Source: Gemmatimonadales bacterium
GTDB lineage: Bacteria; Gemmatimonadota; Gemmatimonadetes; Gemmatimonadales; GWC2-71-9
DNA: 60,944 nt
Direction of reading: 5' to 3'
Assembly: GCA_041613315.1 (NCBI GenBank)
Contig: JBFJHJ010000018.1
Span: 1 to 60,944, forward strand
A program made the translations under genes and the position numbers. Shown here in pieces: positions 43,501 through 58,207 of this stretch (the stretch's first letter is position 1; each line of letters opens with the position of its first letter). Under the pieces are notes generated by a model. The model was not told where the DNA came from. It made no database searches and saw only the letters and a program-made list of their open reading frames with translations.

Positions 43501-46500
43501 TCACCCCCAGTTCTTCGAGTCGGGAGCGTTGCGGCGGAGATTCTTGAGAAAGGCGGTCGGGCGAACAGGTTGGGCGGTCATGAGTGCGCGGGCCCCCGCG
43601 GACCGCCCGGCCGCCTGACCGCCTGTCCGTCCGAGCTCCAGCGCTCGCACTTCCTCCGCAATGATGTTGAGTGTCCCGTCGTCCTTCGCGAGCGTCCCGA
43701 CAATCCAGAGGAATGGCTCGCCACGGATCGCGATGCGGTCCCGCTCGAACACCTTCGGGCGGACGATGGCATTGATCATTCCGGCCTCGTCCTCCATCAG
43801 CACGAAGGTGTACCCACGCGCTGTCTCGGGGCGTTGCCGGGCCACGACGAGCCCCGCCACCGCCACCTCGGCGCCGTGCGCCAGCTCGCCCAAGTGGTCG
43901 CTCCGGACGATACCGGACGGTAACGCGTCCCGCAGCAGGGAGAACGGATGGCTGCCCGCCGCGAACCCGAGCACCTGGTATTCCGCGACCAGCCGCTCGT
44001 CCGCCCCTACGTCACCGAAGCGGATAGTTTCGTACGGATGATTGAGCGGCAGCTCGAGCTGGCGGCGCATTCGGTGGTCGTGGGCGGGTTCCGTCTTGGG
44101 CGGGAGCCACAGGCCCACCTGCCAGAGGAGCTCGCGGCGGGTGAGCCCGAACGCGTCGCAGCCGCCGACCCAGACCAGATTCTCGATGGCGTCGCGTGAG
44201 AGCTTGGGCGGTGCACGGCGCACGTGGTCGGCGAGGCTGACGAAGGGCCCGTTTCGCTCCCGCTCGACCACGACCTCTTCCGCGACGTCCCACCCCCAAT
44301 CTCGGACGAACCCCAGTCCGACGCGTAAAGCGCCGCTCTCGACCGTGCAGTAGACGTCGCTGCCGTTGATGTCCGGAAGCCGGACCTCGACCCCGTGACG
44401 GCCCGCGTCGCGCCCCAGCGCGTCCAGCGAGTAGAACCCCATCGGTTGGTTGTTGAAGAGCGCCGAGTAGTACTCGGTCGGGTGGTAATGCCGGAGCCAT
44501 GCCGACTGATACGCCAGAAGGCCGAACGCGGCGGCATGCGACTTGGGGAACCCGAACTCGCTGAAGGCCACGACCTGCTCGAATACTTTCCGGGCGGTTG
44601 CTGCGGACACGCCGCGGGCGCGGGCACCGTCCAGAAAGTCCTTGCCGAACCCTTCCATCAACTCTCGGGAGCGCCGCCGGCTCATCGCACGCCGGAGCGC
44701 TTCCGCCTGGCCGGCGGTGAACCCCGCGAGTGCCTGGCACACCTGGAGTACCTGGTCTTGATAGACGATGACGCCGAGGGTGTCGGTGAGCGGCTCTCGG
44801 AGGAGGGGGTGGTCGACCGGGGGCGTGTAGGGCTCACGGCGTTCCCGCGCGTGGCGCTGAGCCTCACGCCGGCGCACGTACGGATTCACCGCGCCGCCTA
44901 CGATGGGGCCCGGTCGCACGATCGCCACCTCGACGGCGAGGTCCTCGAGGTTACGCGGGCGTGTACGGCGGATCATCTGGATCTGAGCGCGGCTCTCGAT
45001 CTGGAAGAGCCCCACGGTATCGCCGGCGCAGATTTGGTCGAAGACCGCCTCATCCTCGAAATCGATGCGCGAAAGGTCGGGCGGCACGCCTTCCTTGCGG
45101 GCGATGAGCTCGACGCACTCCTCGACGAGCGAGAGCATCCCCAGGGCGAGAAAGTCGATCTTGATGAATCGCGCGTCGTCGCAGGAATCCTTGTCCCACT
45201 GGCAGACGACGCGGTCGGGCATGGCAGAGCGCTCGAGGGGAACGAGCTCCACGAGAGGGCGGCTCGAGATGACCATCCCCCCCACGTGTTGGGAGATGTG
45301 GCGCGGGAGCCCGGCGATCTCCTCGGCGAGCTCGCACAGCTCGCGCCAGAGGGGGGCATCGACCTTGCCGGCGAAGCCGGGAAGCGTGTGGAGCTCGTCC
45401 CGGAGACCCCGAGCGGAGTGGTGCTGGGCGAGCTTTGCCACCTGTTCCAGCTCGCCCATCGGCAGGTCAAGGGCCTTGCCAAGCTCCCGTACCGCGGAGC
45501 GGAGCCGGTACGTGGGGAACGAGCAGACGAGCCCCACGTGCTCGTCGCCGTACCGCGTGTAGACGCGCCGGATCAGCTCTTCCCGGATCTCTCGAGGGAA
45601 GTCGAGGTCGATATCGGGAATCGATGCAAGGGTCTCGTTCAAGAACCGGCCGAGGAACAGCCGGTTGGCCACCGGATCGATGTGCGAGAGTCCCAGGAAG
45701 TAGCAGATGATGGACGAGACGGACGAGCCGCGGCCGCGGCCCGGGAGCAGGTTCCCGCTGGCGCGTCGTGTGCCGGCGCGGACGTCGGCCGCCACCTCCC
45801 GGGCGAGCTCGAACAGGTCGTGATAGACGAGGAAGAATCCGCAGAGCTCGTGGTGCGCGACGAGGCGGAGCTCTTCGTCCAGTCGACGCTCCGCTTCGGC
45901 ACGATGCGGCGAGCCCGCCGGGTAGAGCTGGTCGAGCTTCGCACGGCAGAGCTCGGCGAGAGCCCGCGGCGCGGTGCGCCGCTCGGCGCCGCGGAAGTCG
46001 GGAAAGATGTAGCCGAGGTCGCGCGTCAGGTCGAACGCGGCGCAGCGCTCGGCGATCACCACCGTATTGGCGATCGCATCGGGGCGGTCGCGGAACCGAG
46101 CGGCGGCTTCCCCCGGCGGCCTGAGGTAGAACTCGCTGTTGGGCTTGCGCAGGTCGTGCGAGGCGTCCAGCGTCGTGCGATGCCGGATGGCGACCATGGT
46201 ATCGTGGAGCCGCTGGCCCCCGCGCCGGTGGTAGTGCACGTCGCCCGTCGCCACCACGGAGAGGCCAGCGGCGTCGGCGACGTCGCACAGCACGCGCGTC
46301 AGGTCCCGATCGCCTCGCACGGCGTGCCGCTGCAACTCGACGAAGAACCGATCGCGGCCGAACACCGCGCGGCAGCGATCCGCGAGCCGCCGCGCCGCGG
46401 CGAGCCCCTCGCGCTCGAGGACGCTCGGTAGAAGGCCGCGCCGGCACCCGGAGAGTACGATGATGCCCTCGTGACGCGCCTCGAGCGAGGCGAAGTCGAG

Positions 46501-46815
46501 CCGCGGGTCCCGCCGGTCCTCACGCCCAAGGTGCGCTTCCGTCACCAGCCGACAGAGATTGGCGTATCCCACCGGCGTTTCGGCGAGGAGCGTCACGTGG
46601 GACCCGTCGAGCAGCGTGAGCTCGGTGCCGGTGATCGCCTGGAGCCCGATCTGCTTCGCCGACTGGGCGAACGCCATCGAGCCGTAGAGCCCGTGGTCGT
46701 CGGTGAGGGCGAGGGCGGGATACCCCAGCGCGGCCGCTTCCAGTGCGAGCTGCTCGGGCAGCGTGGTGCCGTTCAGGAACGAGAACGCCGAGTGACAGTG
46801 GAGCTCGATGTACAT
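43501..46815 (-). CDS. dnaE2: error-prone DNA polymerase III alpha (ImuC)
   Basis: PHP ELHCHSAFSFL, GRGSS, PDIDLDF, HVGG, QWDKD, KIDFL, FQIESRAQ, FPKSHA, RQRPETA; C-terminal SKNWG resembles the DnaE2 S(R/K)xF tail; follows imuB. Confidence 0.95.
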   Translation of the reverse strand: MYIELHCHSAFSFLNGTTLPEQLALEAAALGYPALALTDDHGLYGSMAFAQSAKQIGLQAITGTELTLLDGSHVTLLAETPVGYANLCRLVTEAHLGREDRRDPRLDFASLEARHEGIIVLSGCRRGLLPSVLEREGLAAARRLADRCRAVFGRDRFFVELQRHAVRGDRDLTRVLCDVADAAGLSVVATGDVHYHRRGGQRLHDTMVAIRHRTTLDASHDLRKPNSEFYLRPPGEAAARFRDRPDAIANTVVIAERCAAFDLTRDLGYIFPDFRGAERRTAPRALAELCRAKLDQLYPAGSPHRAEAERRLDEELRLVAHHELCGFFLVYHDLFELAREVAADVRAGTRRASGNLLPGRGRGSSVSSIICYFLGLSHIDPVANRLFLGRFLNETLASIPDIDLDFPREIREELIRRVYTRYGDEHVGLVCSFPTYRLRSAVRELGKALDLPMGELEQVAKLAQHHSARGLRDELHTLPGFAGKVDAPLWRELCELAEEIAGLPRHISQHVGGMVISSRPLVELVPLERSAMPDRVVCQWDKDSCDDARFIKIDFLALGMLSLVEECVELIARKEGVPPDLSRIDFEDEAVFDQICAGDTVGLFQIESRAQIQMIRRTRPRNLEDLAVEVAIVRPGPIVGGAVNPYVRRREAQRHARERREPYTPPVDHPLLREPLTDTLGVIVYQDQVLQVCQALAGFTAGQAEALRRAMSRRRSRELMEGFGKDFLDGARARGVSAATARKVFEQVVAFSEFGFPKSHAAAFGLLAYQSAWLRHYHPTEYYSALFNNQPMGFYSLDALGRDAGRHGVEVRLPDINGSDVYCTVESGALRVGLGFVRDWGWDVAEEVVVERERNGPFVSLADHVRRAPPKLSRDAIENLVWVGGCDAFGLTRRELLWQVGLWLPPKTEPAHDHRMRRQLELPLNHPYETIRFGDVGADERLVAEYQVLGFAAGSHPFSLLRDALPSGIVRSDHLGELAHGAEVAVAGLVVARQRPETARGYTFVLMEDEAGMINAIVRPKVFERDRIAIRGEPFLWIVGTLAKDDGTLNIIAEEVRALELGRTGGQAAGRSAGARALMTAQPVRPTAFLKNLRRNAPDSKNWG
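43551..43632. repeat. octamer-repeat palindrome within the 3' end of dnaE2
   Basis: AGGCGGTC GGGCGAAC..GGGCGGTC facing GACCGCCC GGCCGCCT GACCGCCT GTCCGTCC. Confidence 0.6.
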
Positions 46816-46834
46816 TGGAGGCAGGAGGGGGCAG

Positions 46835-46870
46835 GAGGGGCAGGAGGAAGATGCTGCCCTCCTGCCCCTC
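46835..46870. repeat. 13-bp perfect hairpin of GGCAGGAGG-type repeats just upstream of dnaE2
   Basis: GAGGGGCAGGAGG-N10-CCTCCTGCCCCTC; GCAGGAGG occurs three times in 46821-46847. Confidence 0.7.
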
Positions 46871-46893
46871 GTGCTCCCTCTGTGTCTCTCGGT

Positions 46894-47262
46894 TTAGGGC
46901 ATCTGCAGGAACCAGTTGCCGGTCGTGAGATCTTCGAACACCACGATGTGTCCGCCGCCTTCCAGCGCCACTTCGACGTACCGGCGCGAGATGGGCGCAC
47001 GCCACCATTCATCATCGATGCGCCAGGTTTCGAGGACTTCCGCCACCCGTTTGCTACTTCCCCTGGCGGCGGGGGAAAGCGTGTGCGCTGCCGCGCCTGC
47101 CGCTGGGGTGGGGTCGAACAGGATGGGGCGGCCGCTCGGATCGGAGCGCTCCTCGATCACTTTCGGCAACCCCCCCGCGTCCAGCGTTACGTCGACGCGG
47201 AGCGGAGCGTTCAGTACTCGAAGTCGATGAGCGCGTAGCGGCGTTCGGGAATGCGCGACCAT
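46894..47262 (-). CDS. small protein resembling the ImuB C-terminal / DUF6504-like domain
   Basis: LNAPLRVDV...RVAEVLETWRIDDEWWRAPISRRYVEVALEGG..VVFEDL..GNWF. Lies between imuB and dnaE2 and overlaps the imuB end. Confidence 0.75.
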   Translation of the reverse strand: MVAHSRTPLRAHRLRVLNAPLRVDVTLDAGGLPKVIEERSDPSGRPILFDPTPAAGAAAHTLSPAARGSSKRVAEVLETWRIDDEWWRAPISRRYVEVALEGGGHIVVFEDLTTGNWFLQMP

Positions 47263-48581
47263 GGTTGCACCTCGACGACGTGGTAGAGCATCGCGCGCTT
47301 GAGGCGTGTTTTGATCTCGCGCGCAGCAGTGTGCAGGGCGCGGCGCCGGCCGGCGCGGGCGGCGGCCTCGGCGTCGCGGGCGAAGAGCTGGAGCTCGTCG
47401 GTGCCGCGGGCGAACGCGACGAACTCGACGACGAGCCGCTCCACGGCTCCCTGGGGCGGCGACTGCTCCAGCCGGACTGTGAGTGGGGCCGCGATCCGGT
47501 CCCGATCCGCCGATGGGTCCTTCAAGGTGACCTCGGTGATCCAGGAGGCGCCTTGCTCGAGCGCCGCCCGGGCGCGCGCCACATGGACGCGCCAGCCACT
47601 CCGCCGTGGGTGCCTGAGGGCGCGATCCACGAGCCGCCGGATGGCGAGGGCGAGCATCGCCCGATCGGCCGCCGGGGCAGGGAAATCCATGGCGGCGGTG
47701 ATCGGCTCGGGACGTTCCCGGCCCACCACCGGCGCAGCGACCCCCCCTGCCGCGAGTTGCCACGCTCGCCGCCCCTCGCGGCCGAATTGGGAGACCAGCG
47801 CCGCTTCGGGAAGCTGGGCCAGCTCACCGAGCGTCGTGATGCCGAGTTGCCGGAGCCGGTGGTGCGTGTCGGCACTCACCGGCAGGACGGCGACGGGCTG
47901 GGTGGCGATGAACCGCTGCTCCTCTCCCTGCTTCACGATCAACGGCGCGTTGGGTTTGGCTCGACTGGCGGCAACCCAAGCGACGAACGTCCCGCGACCC
48001 CAGCCCAGGCGGAAAGGCGGTGGGGCGGAAAGGCGGTGGGGCGGTAAGACGGTCGGGCGGTAGGTATGCGCGCGATCGCTCTGCTCCGCTGCTTGCCCAC
48101 CTACCGCCATACCGCCCTCCCGCCCTTCCGTCCCTTCGACCGCCTGACCGCCCGACTGCCTGACCGCAGCGCTTACCGCGCGCAGCTGCCGCACCGGACC
48201 TCCGTACAGCCGTTCCAATCCGTCGGCTCCCACGTACACTCGTCCCAACTCCGCCGGCTCGATCACAGGGCTCACGTCCTCGAGCGCGATCAGCAGCCGC
48301 GTGAATTGCTCGTCGTAGTGGACGGGGTCGGGCTCGACGAGTGCGAGCGGAGGGCAGAGGCCGATGGCTTGGCTCACGGTCATGCCGGGCCGCACCCCCG
48401 CCCGCCGCCCGCCCGGTGAGACCTGCCACAGTCGCCGGATATCCTCAGGCAGGAGAACCGCCGCGGGCCGGCGAACCAACTCCGGCCGGCGTCGCTCCTC
48501 GCACCGGAGTGGGAAGAGCGGGATCCAGACGCAGATGGCGCACTCGGATTCGAGCGGTCGCCTGTGCAGACGGTTGGACAT
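47211..48581 (-). CDS. imuB: inactive Y-family polymerase ImuB
   Basis: CVWIPLFPL, AGVRPGMTVSQA, VSPVIEPAELG, LRQLGITTLGELA, QLFA clamp-like motif. Catalytic acidic residues are absent. Confidence 0.85.
   Translation of the reverse strand: MSNRLHRRPLESECAICVWIPLFPLRCEERRRPELVRRPAAVLLPEDIRRLWQVSPGGRRAGVRPGMTVSQAIGLCPPLALVEPDPVHYDEQFTRLLIALEDVSPVIEPAELGRVYVGADGLERLYGGPVRQLRAVSAAVRQSGGQAVEGTEGREGGMAVGGQAAEQSDRAHTYRPTVLPPHRLSAPPPFRLGWGRGTFVAWVAASRAKPNAPLIVKQGEEQRFIATQPVAVLPVSADTHHRLRQLGITTLGELAQLPEAALVSQFGREGRRAWQLAAGGVAAPVVGRERPEPITAAMDFPAPAADRAMLALAIRRLVDRALRHPRRSGWRVHVARARAALEQGASWITEVTLKDPSADRDRIAAPLTVRLEQSPPQGAVERLVVEFVAFARGTDELQLFARDAEAAARAGRRRALHTAAREIKTRLKRAMLYHVVEVQPWSRIPERRYALIDFEY
48007..48168. 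repeat. in-frame palindrome of tandem octamers inside imuB
   Basis: Seven RGRCGGWN units followed, after a loop, by about eight inverse NNWCCGCC-like units. Confidence 0.75.
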
Positions 48582-48588
48582 AGGGGAC

Positions 48589-48620
48589 CCGAATATATCC
48601 CGAAGATAGGGACTCCGCAA
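48589..48620 (-). promoter_or_regulatory. sigma70-type promoter of imuB overlapped by a candidate SOS box
   Basis: Minus strand TTGCGG-N17-TATATT; plus strand CCGAATATATCCCGAAGAT. Confidence 0.7.
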
Positions 48621-48662
48621 CCAGCGGGAGGCTGGCATCTTATGCTATTGTCACATATTGGT

Positions 48663-49820
48663 TTACGGTGATTCCCAGAGGCTGATTTGTGCCGCAAGCT
48701 CGCTACGTGCCGCCTCATCCGTCGTCGGCTGCTCGTCTTCGCCGTCTGTGTCCGGAATTCCGTAGCGGGCGGCGATCTGGCGGAATCGCCTCGTGAGGGC
48801 CCGGGTGTACTGCTCGGGCGCGTCGCGCCCGCGGCCGTACGCCGCCCGGTACCGCGGGGCGAGCTCCGGATAGTGCCGCTCTACGATCGGCAGGAACCGC
48901 TCTCGCGCCGAGTGGTAGAGCCGGAGCGGTACCGGATAGACGAACCTCGCGCCGGCGTGCCGTGCCGCCCGCATCAAGGCGTCGATCTCCCGAACGCCAT
49001 CGGTCACGCCGGGGAGGACCGGTGCCACGATGAGCCCCGCGCGGATGCCGGCGGCCGTGAGCCGCTCGAGCGCGCGCAACCGGGCATGCGGCATGGGCGT
49101 ACGTGCCTCGAACCGCTTGATCACGGGCACGCTGACACTGATGAGCGAGACGTACACGGTTACGTGATTGCGGCGCGCGGTCTCCAACAGCAGATCGAGA
49201 TCGCGGGTGACCAGGGGGCTCTTGGTGATGAGGCCGATGCGCAGGCGGCGCTCCCGGCTGAGCCGGTCGAGCACGGCACGTGTCACCTGGTACTGTCGCT
49301 CCGCCGGTTGGTACGGGTCGGTTGCCGTCCCGATCACGACGTTCTGGAGTCCATCGGTCACGAACCGGCGCCGCACCCGGCGCAAGTCTCGCTCGAGGGC
49401 GTCGAGCACCGACGTGCGCGCCTTGACGAAGATGCGGTGCTCGAACGACTCCAGGTCCCGTGGCCGACCCAGGTCGGCGTACTCGGCGTCGCTAACCGCG
49501 CCGCGGTCGTGCGCGCGCTCGACGACATAGTGGTGCGCGTAGCGGGCGTAGCAGTAACTGCAGCCGAATTCGCAGCCGACGTAGGGATTGATGGACCAGA
49601 AGCCCATCCCGGTCGATTCGGGCGGGTTGATGACGGACCGCACGCCGAGCTCGACGAACCGTGTGCCGCGCCGTCGCTCGTCCAGCACGGGGAGCGCGCG
49701 ACGCTCGCCCGGCGCGCCGGCGGGCAGGTGAGGCAAGGGGAATTGCGCCGGGCCGCGTATCGTGCACGCGGGGCTGTCCGGTGTCCGGACCGCGTCCACA
49801 CGCCGCATGCGCTCAGCCAC
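48663..49820 (-). CDS. radical SAM protein, SplB/PA0069-like DNA-repair family
   Basis: SINPYVGCEFGCSYCYA (CxxxCxxC), GTATDPYQPAE, TKS.LV.RD.D, APVLPG.TD. Confidence 0.9.
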   Translation of the reverse strand: MAERMRRVDAVRTPDSPACTIRGPAQFPLPHLPAGAPGERRALPVLDERRRGTRFVELGVRSVINPPESTGMGFWSINPYVGCEFGCSYCYARYAHHYVVERAHDRGAVSDAEYADLGRPRDLESFEHRIFVKARTSVLDALERDLRRVRRRFVTDGLQNVVIGTATDPYQPAERQYQVTRAVLDRLSRERRLRIGLITKSPLVTRDLDLLLETARRNHVTVYVSLISVSVPVIKRFEARTPMPHARLRALERLTAAGIRAGLIVAPVLPGVTDGVREIDALMRAARHAGARFVYPVPLRLYHSARERFLPIVERHYPELAPRYRAAYGRGRDAPEQYTRALTRRFRQIAARYGIPDTDGEDEQPTTDEAARSELAAQISLWESP

Positions 49821-50007
49821 AGCGGGCCCAGCCGCAGGCCGGACAGAACGTACATGCGGAGGCCCGAACCAAGGTGCTGCGGCATTCCGGGCACCTGGGC
49901 ATGCCGGGGGCGTCCGCGCCGGCCTGCTTCGCTTCGCTAACCCTCTGGCTCCGCTGGAGTTCGGGACGGTCGCCCTGCGTGCGATTCGGTGTCTGTTCGG
50001 GCGTCAT
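49813..50007 (-). CDS. small zinc-ribbon protein
   Basis: 64 aa ending CPECRSTLVRASACTFCPACGWARCG. The ATG is 7 nt after a TATATT box and the stop overlaps the radical SAM start. Confidence 0.7.
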   Translation of the reverse strand: MTPEQTPNRTQGDRPELQRSQRVSEAKQAGADAPGMPRCPECRSTLVRASACTFCPACGWARCG

Positions 50008-50042
50008 AATACCGAATATAACCCGAAGATCCCGACTCGCAA
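49984..50042 (-). promoter_or_regulatory. promoter with two candidate SOS boxes
   Basis: Minus strand TTGCGA-N16-TATATT; CCGAATATAACCCGAAGAT (50012-50030); inverted copy CCGAACAGACACCGAAT (50000-49984). Confidence 0.7.
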
Positions 50043-52905: not shown

Positions 52906-55197
52906 TCACAACTCGGTGCCGTCGCCAAACAGCGCGGCGTCGAGGCGGAAGCCGCCGGAGGTGCCGCCTCCGGGTGGGACGCGTTCCAGCCAGCGCCGCA
53001 GGCACCCCGGAGGTCGCTGCCGGACAAGGAGTTCGAGCAACTCGCGCTCGGTGCCCACGCGTAGGCCCGAGGCCACGCGGTCGAGAACGGCGTCCAAGAC
53101 CTGGAGTTCGCTCCGCGCCCGCCGGCGCCCCGCACGTCGGGCGCGGTCCAGCAGACGACGGCTGAGCCGGCGGCCGGCGCCGGACGACGGCCCGCGGTCT
53201 GCGGCCGCGAGCCGGTGACGGACCAGTTCCCGGCATGCGGCGAGGAGGCAGGGCGGCGGCGGGGCACGAGAGATCGGGGCCGCGGTCAGCGCGTTCACCA
53301 GGGAGCGCATGCGCCCGTAGTCATCAACCTCGACAGGCGGGTCGCCATCGAGGCAGGCGAGCTCCGGGATGGGGCGTCCGTCCCGCAACCATCGCAACGC
53401 CAACAGCACCGCCCGTGGGCCCTGCACGACCGCATATCCGGGTGGTACGACAGCGGGGCCGCGCGCGCGACCGGCGATCGCCTCACGCGCTTCGATCTGG
53501 GCATTCCACACGCGCGCTCTGCCCGGTGCGGACGTCGTAGCCACTCCAAGCGCCAGCTGGACCGTTCGCTTCGCGACCAGGCGGTCCCGGAGCCTCAGCC
53601 GTCGCTCGAGCGGTGCGGGCGGTACGAACCACCAGACGCGCGCTTCTTGATGATGTGACCCCAGCCGGACGATCCGCCCCAGACGTTGGGCGAGGCGGAG
53701 CGGCGTCCACGGGAGATCGTAGTGCACGATGCCGTCGGCGTCCTGGAGGTCGAGTCCCTCGCTGACGAGATCAGTGGCGATCAGCGTGGCCACCCTCGTG
53801 GCGCGGTGTGGTGCGGACACGCCGCGGGCGCGCGGGGCGAAGAGCGACAGCGCCTCCTCCAGCGGGATCGTTCCGGACGCGATCCGCGCTCGTCCGCCCC
53901 CCACCACGGCGACCTCACGCCACCCGAGCGACTGACCCAGCTCACGAGCCGTCGCAACGGCGGTTGTGAAGACGATGGTAGAGCGCCTGCGGCGGCGGGC
54001 GAGCAGTCCATGGAGGGCCACGATCTTGGGAGACCGGCCCGACGCCGCTTCGAGCCTCCGGACGAGCGCGCGGAGCCGCCGCCGCTCCCCGCGGAGCGCT
54101 GTCGCATCGGCCGCGCCGGTCCGAACGTCGAGGAGACCGAACTCGAGCTGATATTCGTCGTCGCCGGCGAAGATGGCGCGCATCGCCGAGCGCGAGAGCT
54201 GCGTGCCTCTCTTGGCTGCCGTGAGCGCACGCTCCACGTAGTGCAGGTGGCGACCAACGGTCTCAACCGCCGCGGCACCCGAGGACGCCAACCGGTGCAG
54301 AAGGTGCAACCGCAACATTGCCGCAGCGTGCGGGTCCCCGATGTCCGGGAAGTCCAGGTGCTCGATGGCCCGTATGACGCCGTCGAGCGCGCGGTGCTCA
54401 AGCGGCGGCGGCTGAAGCTCCCGTCGGTCGCGGGTTCGCGGAAGTCGAACCGCCGTGCTGCGAGGGCTACGGGCGACCGTCAGCGCTCCGGCGGCTCGCC
54501 GGAGGCGATGGTGGGTCCGGTCCTGCACCGTGGCCTCGATCGACGCGACGCCGAGCATGGCCAGGCCATGGTCGGGTAGGAACAGCCGAAGCAGGTGCGC
54601 CAGGTCGGCCGCACGGTTTACCACCGGAGTCGCCGACATCAGGAGTACCTGGGCGCCGCGCAGGTCGCGAGCGATACGATCGTAGCGTCGAGTCTGTGGA
54701 TTCCGGAAGTGGTGGGCTTCGTCGACGATGAGGAAGTCGGTGGGCGGCACGCGGTGCCCGCGGCTCAGCGCCTCGTGCGAGATCATGGGCAGGTCGATCT
54801 CGAGGCCGTTCGCCGTCCGGCGCCACTGGGGGATCAGGGATGCCGGCACCGCCGCCGCCGCCCGGGCATAGCGCGTCGCCACGGCCAGCGCCACGTAGGT
54901 CTTTCCGAGGCCGGCCGCGTCCGCCAGGAGCGCACCACCGAAGATGTCGAGGCTGGCCGCGACCCGACGCGCCCCCTCCACCTGATGTGCGAGGAGCCAC
55001 CCGGGCGGGTTCCAGCCGTCGAGCCGCGGACCCGCCGCCGCGCGGCGCACAAGTGGCTCGACGTACGCCGGCGTGGCCAACGTGCCGAGCTCCAAGTGCC
55101 AGCGGAGCGGCTCGCTAACTGTGGCGAGCGCGTCCGAGGTGATCGTCGGCGAGCCTACGGAGGATCCGCCGCGCCCCCGGTGAGAGTCCGAGCGCAT
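52906..55197 (-). CDS. SNF2-like SF2 helicase
   Basis: LLAHQ, ADAAGLGKT, DEAH, SATP, ATDLVSEGLDLQ, HYDLPW.P.RL.QRLGRIVRLG. Start uncertain. Confidence 0.85.
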   Translation of the reverse strand: MRSDSHRGRGGSSVGSPTITSDALATVSEPLRWHLELGTLATPAYVEPLVRRAAAGPRLDGWNPPGWLLAHQVEGARRVAASLDIFGGALLADAAGLGKTYVALAVATRYARAAAAVPASLIPQWRRTANGLEIDLPMISHEALSRGHRVPPTDFLIVDEAHHFRNPQTRRYDRIARDLRGAQVLLMSATPVVNRAADLAHLLRLFLPDHGLAMLGVASIEATVQDRTHHRLRRAAGALTVARSPRSTAVRLPRTRDRRELQPPPLEHRALDGVIRAIEHLDFPDIGDPHAAAMLRLHLLHRLASSGAAAVETVGRHLHYVERALTAAKRGTQLSRSAMRAIFAGDDEYQLEFGLLDVRTGAADATALRGERRRLRALVRRLEAASGRSPKIVALHGLLARRRRRSTIVFTTAVATARELGQSLGWREVAVVGGGRARIASGTIPLEEALSLFAPRARGVSAPHRATRVATLIATDLVSEGLDLQDADGIVHYDLPWTPLRLAQRLGRIVRLGSHHQEARVWWFVPPAPLERRLRLRDRLVAKRTVQLALGVATTSAPGRARVWNAQIEAREAIAGRARGPAVVPPGYAVVQGPRAVLLALRWLRDGRPIPELACLDGDPPVEVDDYGRMRSLVNALTAAPISRAPPPPCLLAACRELVRHRLAAADRGPSSGAGRRLSRRLLDRARRAGRRRARSELQVLDAVLDRVASGLRVGTERELLELLVRQRPPGCLRRWLERVPPGGGTSGGFRLDAALFGDGTEL

Positions 55198-58100
55198 CGG
55201 CCACCGTCGAGTCGAGTTCCTCCCGTGCGGCATCGGCAGCGCGGTGGGCGCGGGCACAGAAGGCGGCGAGCGCGGTCCGGTGCACGCCCGGGGGCGGGAC
55301 CGGCAGGTCCTCGGCGACCCGTGCGGTGATGCGGCGATAGCCGCCGCGCGCCTCGTTGCCGCGCACCGACGTCAGCGCCATCGCCCACGTCGAGTTGAGC
55401 ACGCCCGTGATTGCCAGCGCGGCCTCACGGTCGGGTGCGGCGGCGACGTAACAGGTGTTGAGCGGGATCGCGCGTGGGGCGACCTCGTCGAGCAGCACGG
55501 CCCGCGGCCGCCGAGCGATATCAGGCCAGACCACGCGATGCGCTTGGACGGCGGCGCGGGTGCGGAACACCGTCCACAGGGGCCCGCTTCGAAAATCCGA
55601 TCGCCGCTCCAGCCGCGACCGGTGACGCCGAACGTGCCCGCCGGCCAACGGTGGGAGGTGCGCGTGCGGGGTTCCCGCGTCGTCCAGGCCCCAGAGGATC
55701 ACGCGCTCGAGTCGGACGGCGAAGGCCACCACATCCCGGCCGCGCACGGCCGGGCGGAGCGCGTCGCACTCGATGCGAACCGTCCGGTCGCCGAGGCGCA
55801 CTACGCTCGCGCCGTCTTCGACGCCGACCGGCCTTCCGACGAACACGCAGTCGGCGCCGGTCTTCACACCGAGCGCCGGCCGCGCGACATCCGCCAACGG
55901 CAATCCCGCTGCCCGCAGCTCTTCGAGCGCGGCGGCGGCGCGGTCGGGAACGAGGACCCACGGCCCTTCGGTCGCGAGCGAGCCCTGTGGGAGATTGTCC
56001 GCGGTGCCGATCCCCAGGCGGACGCGGTGTCCCGGCGGCGGCGGCGCGCGCCGGACGACGAGCGCCAGCGGGTAGGTGGTGGCTCCGAACGCCCGCGCGT
56101 CTTGCTCCGACACACGGTGCACGCAGGTGATGGTCGTCTCGCGCACGAGGTGCGCGCGTGCTGCTTCGCCGTACGCCGCCGTGGTGACCTTGCTGGGCAG
56201 AAGCATGCCGACGGCGCCACCCTCAGCCGTCAACTCGAGCGCGCGCTGCAAGAAAGCGACGCAGAGATCGGGGAGGTGACGGAAGCCGCGCCGACCCGCG
56301 GCGTGCCACCACGAGAAGCGTTGGCCTAGCAGCTGCCGCCGCGCAGGCGCGAGTCGCTCCGCTCGTACCCATGGTGGGTTGCCCACCACCACCGAGAAGC
56401 CACCGACGGACATGACGTCGGGCACGTGACTCTCGAATGAGAAGGCGGGAACACCGCCGTCGTCCAGCGCGGCGAGGAGCTTCATGAGCTCGTGTCGAGT
56501 CCGCTTGAGCGCTCGGTGGTGTCGACGCTGCTCGGCCGTGAGACCGGCTCGGCCCCCGAAGAGATCGCGGCTGGCGGCCCCCGCCGCGAGATCGGCGATT
56601 TCATGTTCCGCGCCACGGATACCTCGAGCGATCACCGATCGGGCGAGGACCGATTCGGCTGCCCGTAGCGCCTCGATGGCCGCGCGGCGATCCCGGCCAC
56701 GCCGGTCGAAGAGCGCCCGCCGCGCCTCCCGCACCGCGCGTTGTTGGTCGGGGGGCGGCGCCGATCCCCCCAGCTGCCCGGCCGCGAGTCCGAGAGGATC
56801 GAGCAGACTGTCTCCCTGGCGCACCACACCGTCCAGGTTCGGCAACGGCCGAACAGCCGCGAGATCGCGGGTCGGGTCATCTGCAACGACCGCGAGCCAG
56901 AGTCGGAGCTCGGCGAGGCGCACGGCCATCGGGTTCAAATCGACACCGAACAGGTTGTCGCGCAGCAGCGCGTATCTCACGCGCCACCGGTCACGGGCAT
57001 GACCGCGCCGGCGAAGAGAGAGGTGCATCTCAGTCAGGCTGTGCAGCGCGCCCAGAAGAAACGCGCCGGACCCCACCGCGGGATCGAGCAGCCGCAACCG
57101 CTGTAAGGCCACCCGCGCCGCCGACCGCGCCCCAACGGGCAGCGATGCGCACTTCACCAGGCGGCGCGCCGTGTCGGGGGCGAGGCCGCCGACGCCGGCG
57201 AGCGCGGTCTCGAGCGTGGCATCGACGACGTGCCGTACGACGCCTTCCGGAGTGTAGAAGCTGCCGGTGGTGTGGCGTTCGCCTCCGTCCATCAGCCGTT
57301 CGAACACACGCCCCAGCATGTCCGGAGCGATGGCGTTCACCTCGTCGGCTTCGCGGAGACAGAACCGAAAGTGCTCGAAGAGGTGGTCGAACGCGTCGCG
57401 CCACAGCGCGTTGCTGAACAGGACAGGGCCAATGCGGCGCTCGACCGGGTGCGTCTCGAACAGGCCGCCGTTCAGATAGGGGACATCGCCTGGTGGGACG
57501 TGGCGCCCGCGGCCGTCCCGTGGGCGGTTGAGTGTGCCGAAGAAAAGGGGGTGTAGCGCGGACCGGTGAAAGTGACGGCGGCGCGCCAGGGTCGTGTCGA
57601 GCAGCGCGCGGAGATAGTCGGAACGCCCGTCGAGCCATCCCTTGGCCTGGACGAAGTAGAGGAATAGCACGCGGGTGAGCGCGAGCAGCGTTGCCATGCG
57701 GCGGTCACGCATGGTGTAGCGCTCGTCGAGGGATCCGGCCATGCGCTCGAGCATCACCCGGAACGCCGTAAAGAAACGTTCTCCGGCGACTTCCGTGTCG
57801 AACAACTCCGCGACGCGCAGTGCGTGTGTGAGGGCCGTATCCCGCGGGTTCGGACGCAGCGCGTCGAGTTGTTGCCGCACGAGCGGCGGGATGTGGGCAG
57901 GCGGGACGAGCAGCACACGCGTCGCACCGCCGGTCCCGAGCCGAGGGGCGGCGAGGGCAACCGACCCGTCGGGCCCGAGGGCCGCCGCCAGGCCCCGCAC
58001 ACCGTCGTTGGCCAAGCGGCGAGCCACATCCCGTGCGGCCGTGGCAGGGTCCTCGGCCGCCACGGCCAGCACCCGGAAGCTCCGCCAGCGCGCTACGGCG

Positions 58101-58207
58101 CGCGTCCCGTGGGAGAACGACCGGTCGTCTGGCGCGTAGCCAAGGGCGGCGAACAGGGAGCTGAGGTCACCTACGGAAGCAGAAGTGCTCGGACGTGCGT
58201 GAAGCAT
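55115..58207 (-). CDS. large gamma-class N6-adenine DNA methyltransferase (Eco57I/TaqI-like)
   Basis: RVLFLYFVQAKGWL, PYLNGGLF, GSFYTP, DPAVGSGAF (motif I), GNPPW (motif IV), TaqI-C-like tail. Confidence 0.88.
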   Translation of the reverse strand: MLHARPSTSASVGDLSSLFAALGYAPDDRSFSHGTRAVARWRSFRVLAVAAEDPATAARDVARRLANDGVRGLAAALGPDGSVALAAPRLGTGGATRVLLVPPAHIPPLVRQQLDALRPNPRDTALTHALRVAELFDTEVAGERFFTAFRVMLERMAGSLDERYTMRDRRMATLLALTRVLFLYFVQAKGWLDGRSDYLRALLDTTLARRRHFHRSALHPLFFGTLNRPRDGRGRHVPPGDVPYLNGGLFETHPVERRIGPVLFSNALWRDAFDHLFEHFRFCLREADEVNAIAPDMLGRVFERLMDGGERHTTGSFYTPEGVVRHVVDATLETALAGVGGLAPDTARRLVKCASLPVGARSAARVALQRLRLLDPAVGSGAFLLGALHSLTEMHLSLRRRGHARDRWRVRYALLRDNLFGVDLNPMAVRLAELRLWLAVVADDPTRDLAAVRPLPNLDGVVRQGDSLLDPLGLAAGQLGGSAPPPDQQRAVREARRALFDRRGRDRRAAIEALRAAESVLARSVIARGIRGAEHEIADLAAGAASRDLFGGRAGLTAEQRRHHRALKRTRHELMKLLAALDDGGVPAFSFESHVPDVMSVGGFSVVVGNPPWVRAERLAPARRQLLGQRFSWWHAAGRRGFRHLPDLCVAFLQRALELTAEGGAVGMLLPSKVTTAAYGEAARAHLVRETTITCVHRVSEQDARAFGATTYPLALVVRRAPPPPGHRVRLGIGTADNLPQGSLATEGPWVLVPDRAAAALEELRAAGLPLADVARPALGVKTGADCVFVGRPVGVEDGASVVRLGDRTVRIECDALRPAVRGRDVVAFAVRLERVILWGLDDAGTPHAHLPPLAGGHVRRHRSRLERRSDFRSGPLWTVFRTRAAVQAHRVVWPDIARRPRAVLLDEVAPRAIPLNTCYVAAAPDREAALAITGVLNSTWAMALTSVRGNEARGGYRRITARVAEDLPVPPPGVHRTALAAFCARAHRAADAAREELDSTVADALGLSPGARRILRRLADDHLGRARHS

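Follow-up and report, generated by a model that had tools for sequence, protein, structure and literature searches.

A split ImuB mutagenesis cassette without imuA and a finger–radical SAM pair behind a likely LexA box in Gemmatimonadales

In the window analyzed here, a 60,944-nucleotide stretch of Gemmatimonadales DNA that forms contig C18 (assembly size 2.63 Mb, completeness 82.9%), five genes follow each other on the minus strand: a 64-residue zinc-finger open reading frame (ORF), a radical SAM gene, a gene for a Y-family protein, a small ORF, and the gene of the error-prone polymerase DnaE2. A first-pass annotation had listed these co-oriented genes in the same order, with two matching promoters and with no imuA among them. 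All of this agrees with the ORF coordinates, with the layout and TTCGG repeat common to the two promoters, and with Pfam/NCBIfam-type family scans, which match the gene calls at the locus. The features are as follows.

50012-50042, minus strand: promoter 1, predicted -35 TTGCGA (50042-50037), predicted -10 TATATT (50020-50015)
50027-50012, minus strand: box of promoter 1, TTCGG-N6-TTCGG, overlapping the predicted -10; likely LexA operator
49813-50007, minus strand: 64-residue microprotein with a variable N terminus and a C-terminal finger, CxxC-x9-CxxCxxCGWxxCG
48663-49820, minus strand: radical SAM protein of the Rv2578c/PA0069 (SplB-like) group, starting at GTG 49820 (which overlaps the finger stop) or ATG 49808
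48589-48620, minus strand: promoter 2, predicted -35 TTGCGG, predicted -10 TATATT, box TTCGG-N6-TTCGG at 48604-48589
47211-48581, minus strand: inactive Y-family polymerase (iPolY, ImuY type), PF00817, with a Y-family fold in its structure model
47382-47396, minus strand: predicted beta-clamp motif ELQLF, iPolY residues 396-400, L399 and F400 invariant in 28/28 aligned rows
47271-47348, minus strand: segment of iPolY resembling the N-terminal part of RecA (RecA-NT), predicted RecA docking site, residues ~412-437, helix then strand
46894-47262, minus strand: stand-alone ImuB-C, 122 residues, aligned by hhalign to ImuB residues 432-505 (probability 94.8, E 5e-8)
43501-46815, minus strand: DnaE2 error-prone polymerase, 920.7 bits against PRK05672 (cut-off 939), with D401, D403, and D554 intact

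Among 200 relatives searched with DnaE2, 46 carry a close form of it (61-82% identity), 34 in the genome's own family and 12 in two others, and 40 of these 46 loci (30 own-family, 10 of the two other families) were compared. Genome G155 is counted solely in the overall tallies, which are this search and a 201-genome search for the radical SAM gene. A homologue search with iPolY gave close relatives only among the 120 matches listed, and nearly all of 47 named loci are Gemmatimonadota records, many of them labelled Gemmatimonadales. Plasmid searches found no reference split cassette.

The Y-family protein and the small ORF that follows it are, judged by their sequences, one ImuB split in two, standing beside an intact DnaE2. 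On a reference profile made from 12 full-length ImuBs of canonical Gemmatimonadota cassettes, iPolY covers residues 16-406 of 509 (probability 99.9). The protein with the first-pass name imuB is not a full ImuB; because the ImuB-C domain lies in the next ORF, the gene is better described as an inactive PolY of the ImuY type. Its catalytic positions were judged against the DinB residue pattern, and in nearly all of the 28 rows Asp is missing both from motif I and from the position before Glu111, so that a Y-family fold is combined with replaced catalytic Asp positions. The ELQLF motif occupies the position of the ImuB clamp motif in PMC11791113. The second half, the ImuB-C ORF, has no Pfam or NCBIfam match, and its Atlas lead is DUF6504 at 0.90. 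Its ATG lies inside the iPolY gene, 52 nucleotides ahead of the iPolY stop, and within conserved Pro-Trp codons in 32/32 loci with the motif; in 28 of these 32, the start and the DEWW core share one reading frame, and the Pro codon at this point is CCA in 25 of 32, as opposed to 8% elsewhere in the gene. The two ORFs are in different frames in all 38 loci where both were found. In other families the two genes do not overlap. A programmed frameshift fusing iPolY to the ImuB-C ORF was considered and rejected, since the junction shows no slippery site, the ORF has its own selected start, and the overlap is missing in other families.

The succession of PolY, small ORF, and dnaE2 is contiguous in 30/30 own-family loci and in 6/10 loci of the two other families. 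The operon carries an active-type DnaE2, and the genome has a separate replicative dnaE, 30% identical to it, on C11. By its gene composition, the core belongs to the published ImuA-less type iPolY-ImuB-C-DnaE2(-RecA); stand-alone ImuB-C proteins and an association with SplB-like enzymes have also been described (PMC3765255).

Three local features of the core genes were seen in passing. The C terminus of DnaE2 (43501-43560) ends, in the split type, in a conserved ...RR..P.xK[NDS]WG, and in imuA-linked forms in [HR]D[FY][HR]. Inside iPolY, at window positions 48011-48170 (minus strand), there is an in-frame short-repeat insert of ~40 codons that the model shows as a loop of low confidence (residues 145-185), that is mostly missing in relatives, and that folds into a long hairpin of about -99 kcal/mol for 160 nucleotides (calculated with no shuffle control). 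The gap between ImuB-C and dnaE2 (46806-46905, minus strand) contains complementary short-repeat arrays, with a hairpin of about -50 kcal/mol (again with no shuffle control), ending just before the dnaE2 ATG.

A search of the whole genome for ImuA/RecA paralogues with hidden Markov models, the check proposed in the first-pass annotation, found no imuA within the 82.9% of the genome that is present. With PF00154, one match exceeds the cut-off (recA) and three others are weak (E 0.026 or worse); the ImuA model NF033429 finds recA and one 59-position match on C10 (E 4.5e-4). An imuA under the same promoter box elsewhere, named in the first-pass annotation as a refutation, was not seen either: in family scans, the five best box sites of the genome have no RecA paralogue downstream. 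Across the 46 relatives with the same DnaE2 type, all at least 93% complete, the ImuA model gave RecA-like matches only (46/46; one match in 45 genomes, two in G057). In the control set of 20 genomes, which have the other DnaE2 type, the ImuA model found further matches in 15, mostly near dnaE2. Two points weigh against taking these negatives as absolute: the model missed the RecA-like gene before ImuB in G036 and G188, which tblastn shows, and the matches were compared with known recA positions in 9 of the 46 relatives. In the split-type genomes searched, no imuA was detected, by a search that is good though imperfect. That a diverged imuA lies elsewhere, overlooked through the incomplete assembly or a weak profile, is scarcely credible: the missing part of the assembly, the two genes overlooked in the control set, and the weak match on C10 would leave room for it, but the uniform result in 46 far more complete relatives and the genes found behind the best boxes speak against it.

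In five metagenome loci (L224, L231, L239, L263, and L284), the finger and the radical SAM gene are followed directly by a distant PolY (25-32% identical) and then by dnaE2. No space is left there for an imuA between radical SAM and PolY, so these loci are perhaps another ImuA-less arrangement.

The part of the canonical ImuA would likely be taken by RecA itself, by analogy with published systems. Operons of inactive PolY, ImuB-C, and DnaE2 without imuA are described in PMC6511836, where RecA is proposed as the substitute, and PMC12926913 names the type DnaE2X-iPolY-ImuBC-RecA and reports that models of it that include RecA score high. In Deinococcus deserti, UV mutagenesis requires ImuY, DnaE2, and RecA (PMC8072749). 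In the model of iPolY, the tail consists of a helix (395-427) and a strand (433-437), with predicted local distance difference test values (pLDDT) of ~50-65. It is hydrophobic at 423, 427, and 432 in 28/28 rows, and the spacing of these positions (i, i+4, i+9) is that of V374, L378, and V383 of ImuB in PMC11791113. In addition, hhalign places the tail on the corresponding part of the ImuB profile. Two results run counter to RecA docking at this tail. Gly428 is kept in 4 of the 28 rows, most of the others having Lys or Arg, and a RecA N-terminal profile, which is shallow (30 relatives), gave no match to the tail (hhalign probability 0.1). Because this direct test was negative, the role of RecA is something that we infer.

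It is improbable, though, that the three proteins act without any RecA-family subunit, with RecA serving for induction only and the tail left with a different partner or none. The negative profile test and the loss of the tail glycine in 24/28 rows would suit such a mode of action, and PMC8072749 itself states that whether the ImuY-ImuB-C-DnaE2 complex needs RecA is not known. Three invariantly hydrophobic positions with the spacing of ImuB, the alignment of the segment with the matching part of ImuB, and the high scores of the published models with RecA argue instead for RecA as the stand-in.

Both units of the locus stand behind predicted promoters of the same build, TTGCG(A/G), 16-17 nucleotides, and TATATT, with TTCGG on each side of the -10; the match reads TTGCG(A/G) ... 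CTTCGGG(T/A)TATATTCGG at 50012-50042 and 48589-48620. In promoter 1 the ATG of the finger is located 7 nucleotides past the predicted -10, so that its transcript is likely leaderless; in promoter 2, 10 nucleotides separate the -10 from the PolY ATG. The 17-mer CTTCGG-N5-ATTCGG has two copies in the 2.63-Mb genome, both of them at this locus. The box was found in 30/30 own-family cassette loci, and TTCG-N7-TTCG occurs within 110 nucleotides of lexA in 26/31 loci, where it is usually doubled. It precedes recA in 13/13 own-family and 5/5 sister-family loci, and control windows inside recA gave 0/30. Of 20 loci with the other DnaE2 type, 16 have it as well, 9 of them directly before the RecA-like gene. 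TTCG pairs show a sharp peak at a period of 11 nucleotides, where there are 71 pairs, and no other distance has more than 16. The counterevidence comes from four more distant families, in which the box precedes recA in 0/12 loci.

The lexA, recA, and cassette promoters of relatives supplied 106 sites for a matrix, and the scan with it therefore favours these same promoter classes. In the own genome, five sites reach at least 24 bits: one each for recA, lexA, and an operon on C1, and one in each of the two cassette promoters. The counts of such sites in three simulated genomes were 0, 1, and 0. The box TTCG-N7-TTCG is thus found on the promoters of lexA, recA, and SOS genes and is rare elsewhere, and this distribution makes it a likely LexA operator. 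Co-regulation of the radical SAM gene with the mutagenesis genes, proposed in the first-pass annotation, is borne out in the form of this common predicted control box. We consider it very improbable that a regulator different from LexA binds the box, or that the box is a mere conserved promoter shape. It overlaps the -10 hexamer, and part of its conservation is for this reason promoter sequence; however, the TTCG pairs flank differing spacers at one sharply preferred distance, they are usually doubled before lexA, recA and lexA are among the few high-scoring sites of the genome, and direct repeats with the same period are among the known sites of LexA (PMC8565304). Direct-repeat LexA boxes are also described in PMC3323433, PMC9578287, and PMC7739468. 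A literature search for a LexA box of Gemmatimonadota found none, and the TTCG repeat may already have been published for Patescibacteria.

The site on C1 (G000:C1:28673, plus strand, locus L352), the fourth-best of the genome, is in a promoter directly before an operon that ends in a 680-residue ORF. Two ORFs of this operon were scanned and have no Pfam or NCBIfam match; they are candidates for uncharacterized SOS genes. An identification as nurA-herA, which had been a guess, was dropped for want of support from the family scans. A second lexA-like gene is present in each of G010, G016, G027, G029, G034, G038, G045, G047, G049, G050, G053, and G062.

The first gene behind promoter 1 encodes a finger of six cysteines. 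The 64-residue ORF gives a weak match to a model of B12-dependent ribonucleotide reductase, over the final 44 positions of the model (E 9e-7), and the finger profile matches the C terminus of the genome's own class II ribonucleotide reductase, NrdJ (E 1.9e-8), where the six cysteines have the same spacing. In the finger they are invariant in 26/26 copies with both Cys codons in use, and third codon positions differ about twice as often as the others (0.58, vs 0.27 for first and 0.30 for second positions). In 22 of the 26 copies the start lies a few bases past the -10 (with the box found by pattern). The spacing is fixed over 26 residues, a Pro and a Gly are invariant, and a Ser and a Trp nearly so, which points to a folded domain. 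From this codon and residue pattern, the finger is a real gene and a conserved free-standing homologue of the six-cysteine tail of NrdJ. In PMC5704485, four cysteines of the NrdJ tail are assigned to zinc and the other two are proposed as an electron shuttle; Cys52 and Cys63 of the finger are the counterparts of the proposed shuttle pair. In a wider library, 131 of the best 150 of 3258 matches end in the six-cysteine pattern, and 14 of 18 longer matches that were scanned carry reductase or TSCPD domains. The 64-residue protein gave no TSCPD match in the family scan, and it is shorter than the cysteine-rich domain of NrdJ/NrdJb (150-220 residues). A literature search for a free-standing finger of this kind, limited in extent, found no paper.

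The finger is not a fragment broken off nrdJ, since the genome's own NrdJ is whole and its tail is present. Wide occurrence in the damage operons of other phyla was also considered and dropped: 80 metagenome loci were found with a search pattern that favoured this subtype, and nearly all of them have the same radical SAM gene. Two single sequences, either possibly an assembly or gene-calling artefact, have the finger fused to the DNA-binding domain of LexA (P0090, 99 residues) or placed after a PafC helix-turn-helix (P0096, 159 residues).

The radical SAM protein scores below the curated cut-offs of its nearest families, those of Rv2578c/PA0069 (NF038135, 198 vs 430 bits; NF033668, 184 vs 360 bits), and its only conserved cysteines are the three of the cluster motif. 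By sequence it has no match in the PDB. Spore photoproduct lyase models match weakly (TIGR04070, 34 bits vs 400; PF20903, 21 vs 27). SplB proper has a conserved extra active-site cysteine, and the low scores, together with the lack of any conserved Cys beyond the cluster motif, set the protein apart from that family. It is likely a lesion-repair enzyme.

The finger and the radical SAM gene form a second unit, separate from the core. The finger is present in 25/30 own-family cassette loci. The search of 201 genomes gave 141 radical SAM matches, from which a further 40 genes were chosen; the finger lies upstream of the gene in 28/31 own-family, 1/2 third-family, and 0/7 sister-family genomes, and it is missing in 12 more sister-family genomes (0/19 in total). 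Of the 80 metagenome loci, whose gene content was read by tblastn, 65 extend far enough to judge, and in 59 of these the radical SAM gene directly follows the finger. An insert separates radical SAM from iPolY in 19 of the 30 own-family loci; the two genes are adjacent in 7, and 4 have no radical SAM gene within 9 kb. Given these frequent inserts and absences, the string of five genes is best seen as a frequent joining of two units. The insert is mostly an antisense gene, in 3/3 scanned cases DUF72. In L042, L044, L058, and other own-family loci, the DUF72 gene starts near the iPolY promoter and may thus share its box.

These distributions bear on the proposal of the first-pass annotation that small proteins, the zinc finger and the ORF before dnaE2, have taken over the role of ImuA in a lineage-specific mutasome. 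The finger does stand in the same cluster in most own-family loci, and where all five genes are adjacent (7/30) one box was found. The ORF before dnaE2, however, is a part of ImuB. The finger precedes the radical SAM gene wherever that gene is located, has no RecA-like fold in family scans, is found in G064 and G200, both of which have an imuA-like gene, and is missing from 10/10 ImuA-less loci of the two other families. The proposal was not upheld, and we give it almost no credence. The mutasome is lineage-specific in that an ImuA-less form is conserved in one lineage, but not in its three-gene core, which has already been published (PMC6511836, PMC12926913, PMC8072749).

A quick tree of 92 radical SAM sequences separates a finger-less clade of 19, in which each of three columns has Cys in 14/19 rows, from a clade of 73 (69 of them finger-linked) with no Cys at those columns. 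This contrast fits the finger as a supplier of thiols. It is a single contrast, and the four finger-less members of the larger clade also have no Cys at the three columns, which detracts from it. We can tentatively suggest that the finger is an accessory thiol or redox partner of the radical SAM protein, a role that is possible rather than probable. Somewhat less likely, the finger could be a leader peptide or a metal or cysteine sensor through which translation of the radical SAM gene is coupled, or it could act on NrdJ in trans. As the first, likely leaderless ORF, with a stop that overlaps the next start, it is suitably placed for such coupling, and radical SAM genes without it exist throughout the sister-family genomes examined; in addition, it copies a part of NrdJ, and electron transfer between NrdJ subunits is reported in PMC5704485. 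The fixed spacing and conserved residues suggest a folded domain rather than a leader, whereas action on NrdJ is opposed by the tail that NrdJ itself retains, by the position of the finger beside the radical SAM gene and not beside nrdJ, and by the observation in PMC5704485 of no activity from the separately expressed domain.

Apart from these genes, the window contains at 52906-58207 (minus strand) an SNF2-type helicase adjoining an Eco57I-like DNA methyltransferase, which may be a defence locus.

Taken together, the locus probably combines two damage units behind a likely LexA box, a split-ImuB cassette that would likely use RecA and a finger-radical SAM pair. Upon DNA damage, LexA cleavage induced by RecA would free both promoters. 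iPolY would then use ELQLF to dock on the beta-clamp and its helix-strand tail to dock on RecA; ImuB-C, presumably made by translational coupling from the start inside the iPolY gene, would bridge to DnaE2, which would carry out mutagenic synthesis. The radical SAM enzyme would repair lesions, perhaps with the finger as its thiol or redox accessory. We can speculate further, on a reading that is itself unlikely, that in one Gemmatimonadales lineage the redox tail of the B12 ribonucleotide reductase came to be encoded separately, as an SOS protein of 40-65 residues. This protein would supply a radical SAM DNA-repair enzyme, which has no counterparts to the cysteines of the finger-less sister clade, with electrons or hydrogen atoms, and the pair would be induced together with the RecA-using split mutasome through the LexA box.

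None of these findings overturns the current understanding. The additions here are the TTCG box and the finger-radical SAM pair, neither of which was found in print. The core extends the ImuA-less type of mutasome to a large soil lineage; the box offers a route to mapping the SOS regulon of Gemmatimonadota; and the finger is a handle on a widespread group of SOS radical SAM proteins.

Compared with known systems, the core is closest to the Kyrpidia tusciae type, DnaE2X-iPolY-ImuB-C-RecA (PMC6511836, PMC12926913), with which it shares an operon of inactive PolY, stand-alone ImuB-C, and DnaE2, a genome in which no imuA is found, and a predicted clamp motif with a helix-strand tail behind it. It differs in its Gemmatimonadota host, a phylum not named in the main text of either paper, in the own-family tail without glycine, in the 52-nucleotide overlap of the ImuB-C start with iPolY, and in the linked finger-radical SAM unit. 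The Deinococcus form, ImuY-ImuB-C-DnaE2 (PMC8072749), has the same three-gene core in the same order and no imuA, and there LexA/RecA control and UV mutagenesis have been shown; here, in contrast, lexA lies outside the cluster (on C3), the box is a direct repeat, and an extra unit is present upstream.

The box resembles those of Alphaproteobacteria (GTTC-N7-GTTC) and Balneolaeota in being a direct repeat with an 11-nucleotide period on the lexA and recA promoters (PMC8565304, PMC7739468). The alphaproteobacterial box has TTC in common with that of Gemmatimonadales, but the conserved word here is TTCG(G), and the preceding base is free. The microprotein shares with the finger of NrdJ (PMC5704485) the six cysteines in the spacing of the own NrdJ, the shuttle pair included, and the Cys-Gly-stop end. 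Unlike it, the microprotein is free-standing, has neither a TSCPD part nor a barrel, carries W in place of Y, and precedes a radical SAM gene, away from nrdJ. SOS-regulated SplB-like radical SAM proteins (COG1533; PMC3323433, PMC8565304, PMC3765255) are likewise repair-type genes under an SOS box near mutagenesis genes, whereas the protein described here has Rv2578c/PA0069 as its nearest models, no conserved Cys beyond the cluster motif, and a finger in front.

With the canonical ImuA-ImuB-DnaE2 cassette, the locus has in common the dead PolY scaffold, the clamp motif, ImuB-C, and DnaE2. Neither of the marks of that cassette, an imuA and an ImuB-C fused to PolY, is found here: ImuA is missing, ImuB is divided between two genes, and DnaE2 ends in the K[NDS]WG type rather than in the [HR]D[FY][HR] of its imuA-linked relatives. 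The canonical form occurs in other Gemmatimonadota behind the same box, and since the split and canonical forms are found in different genomes of one phylum under one type of box, they provide a natural comparison.

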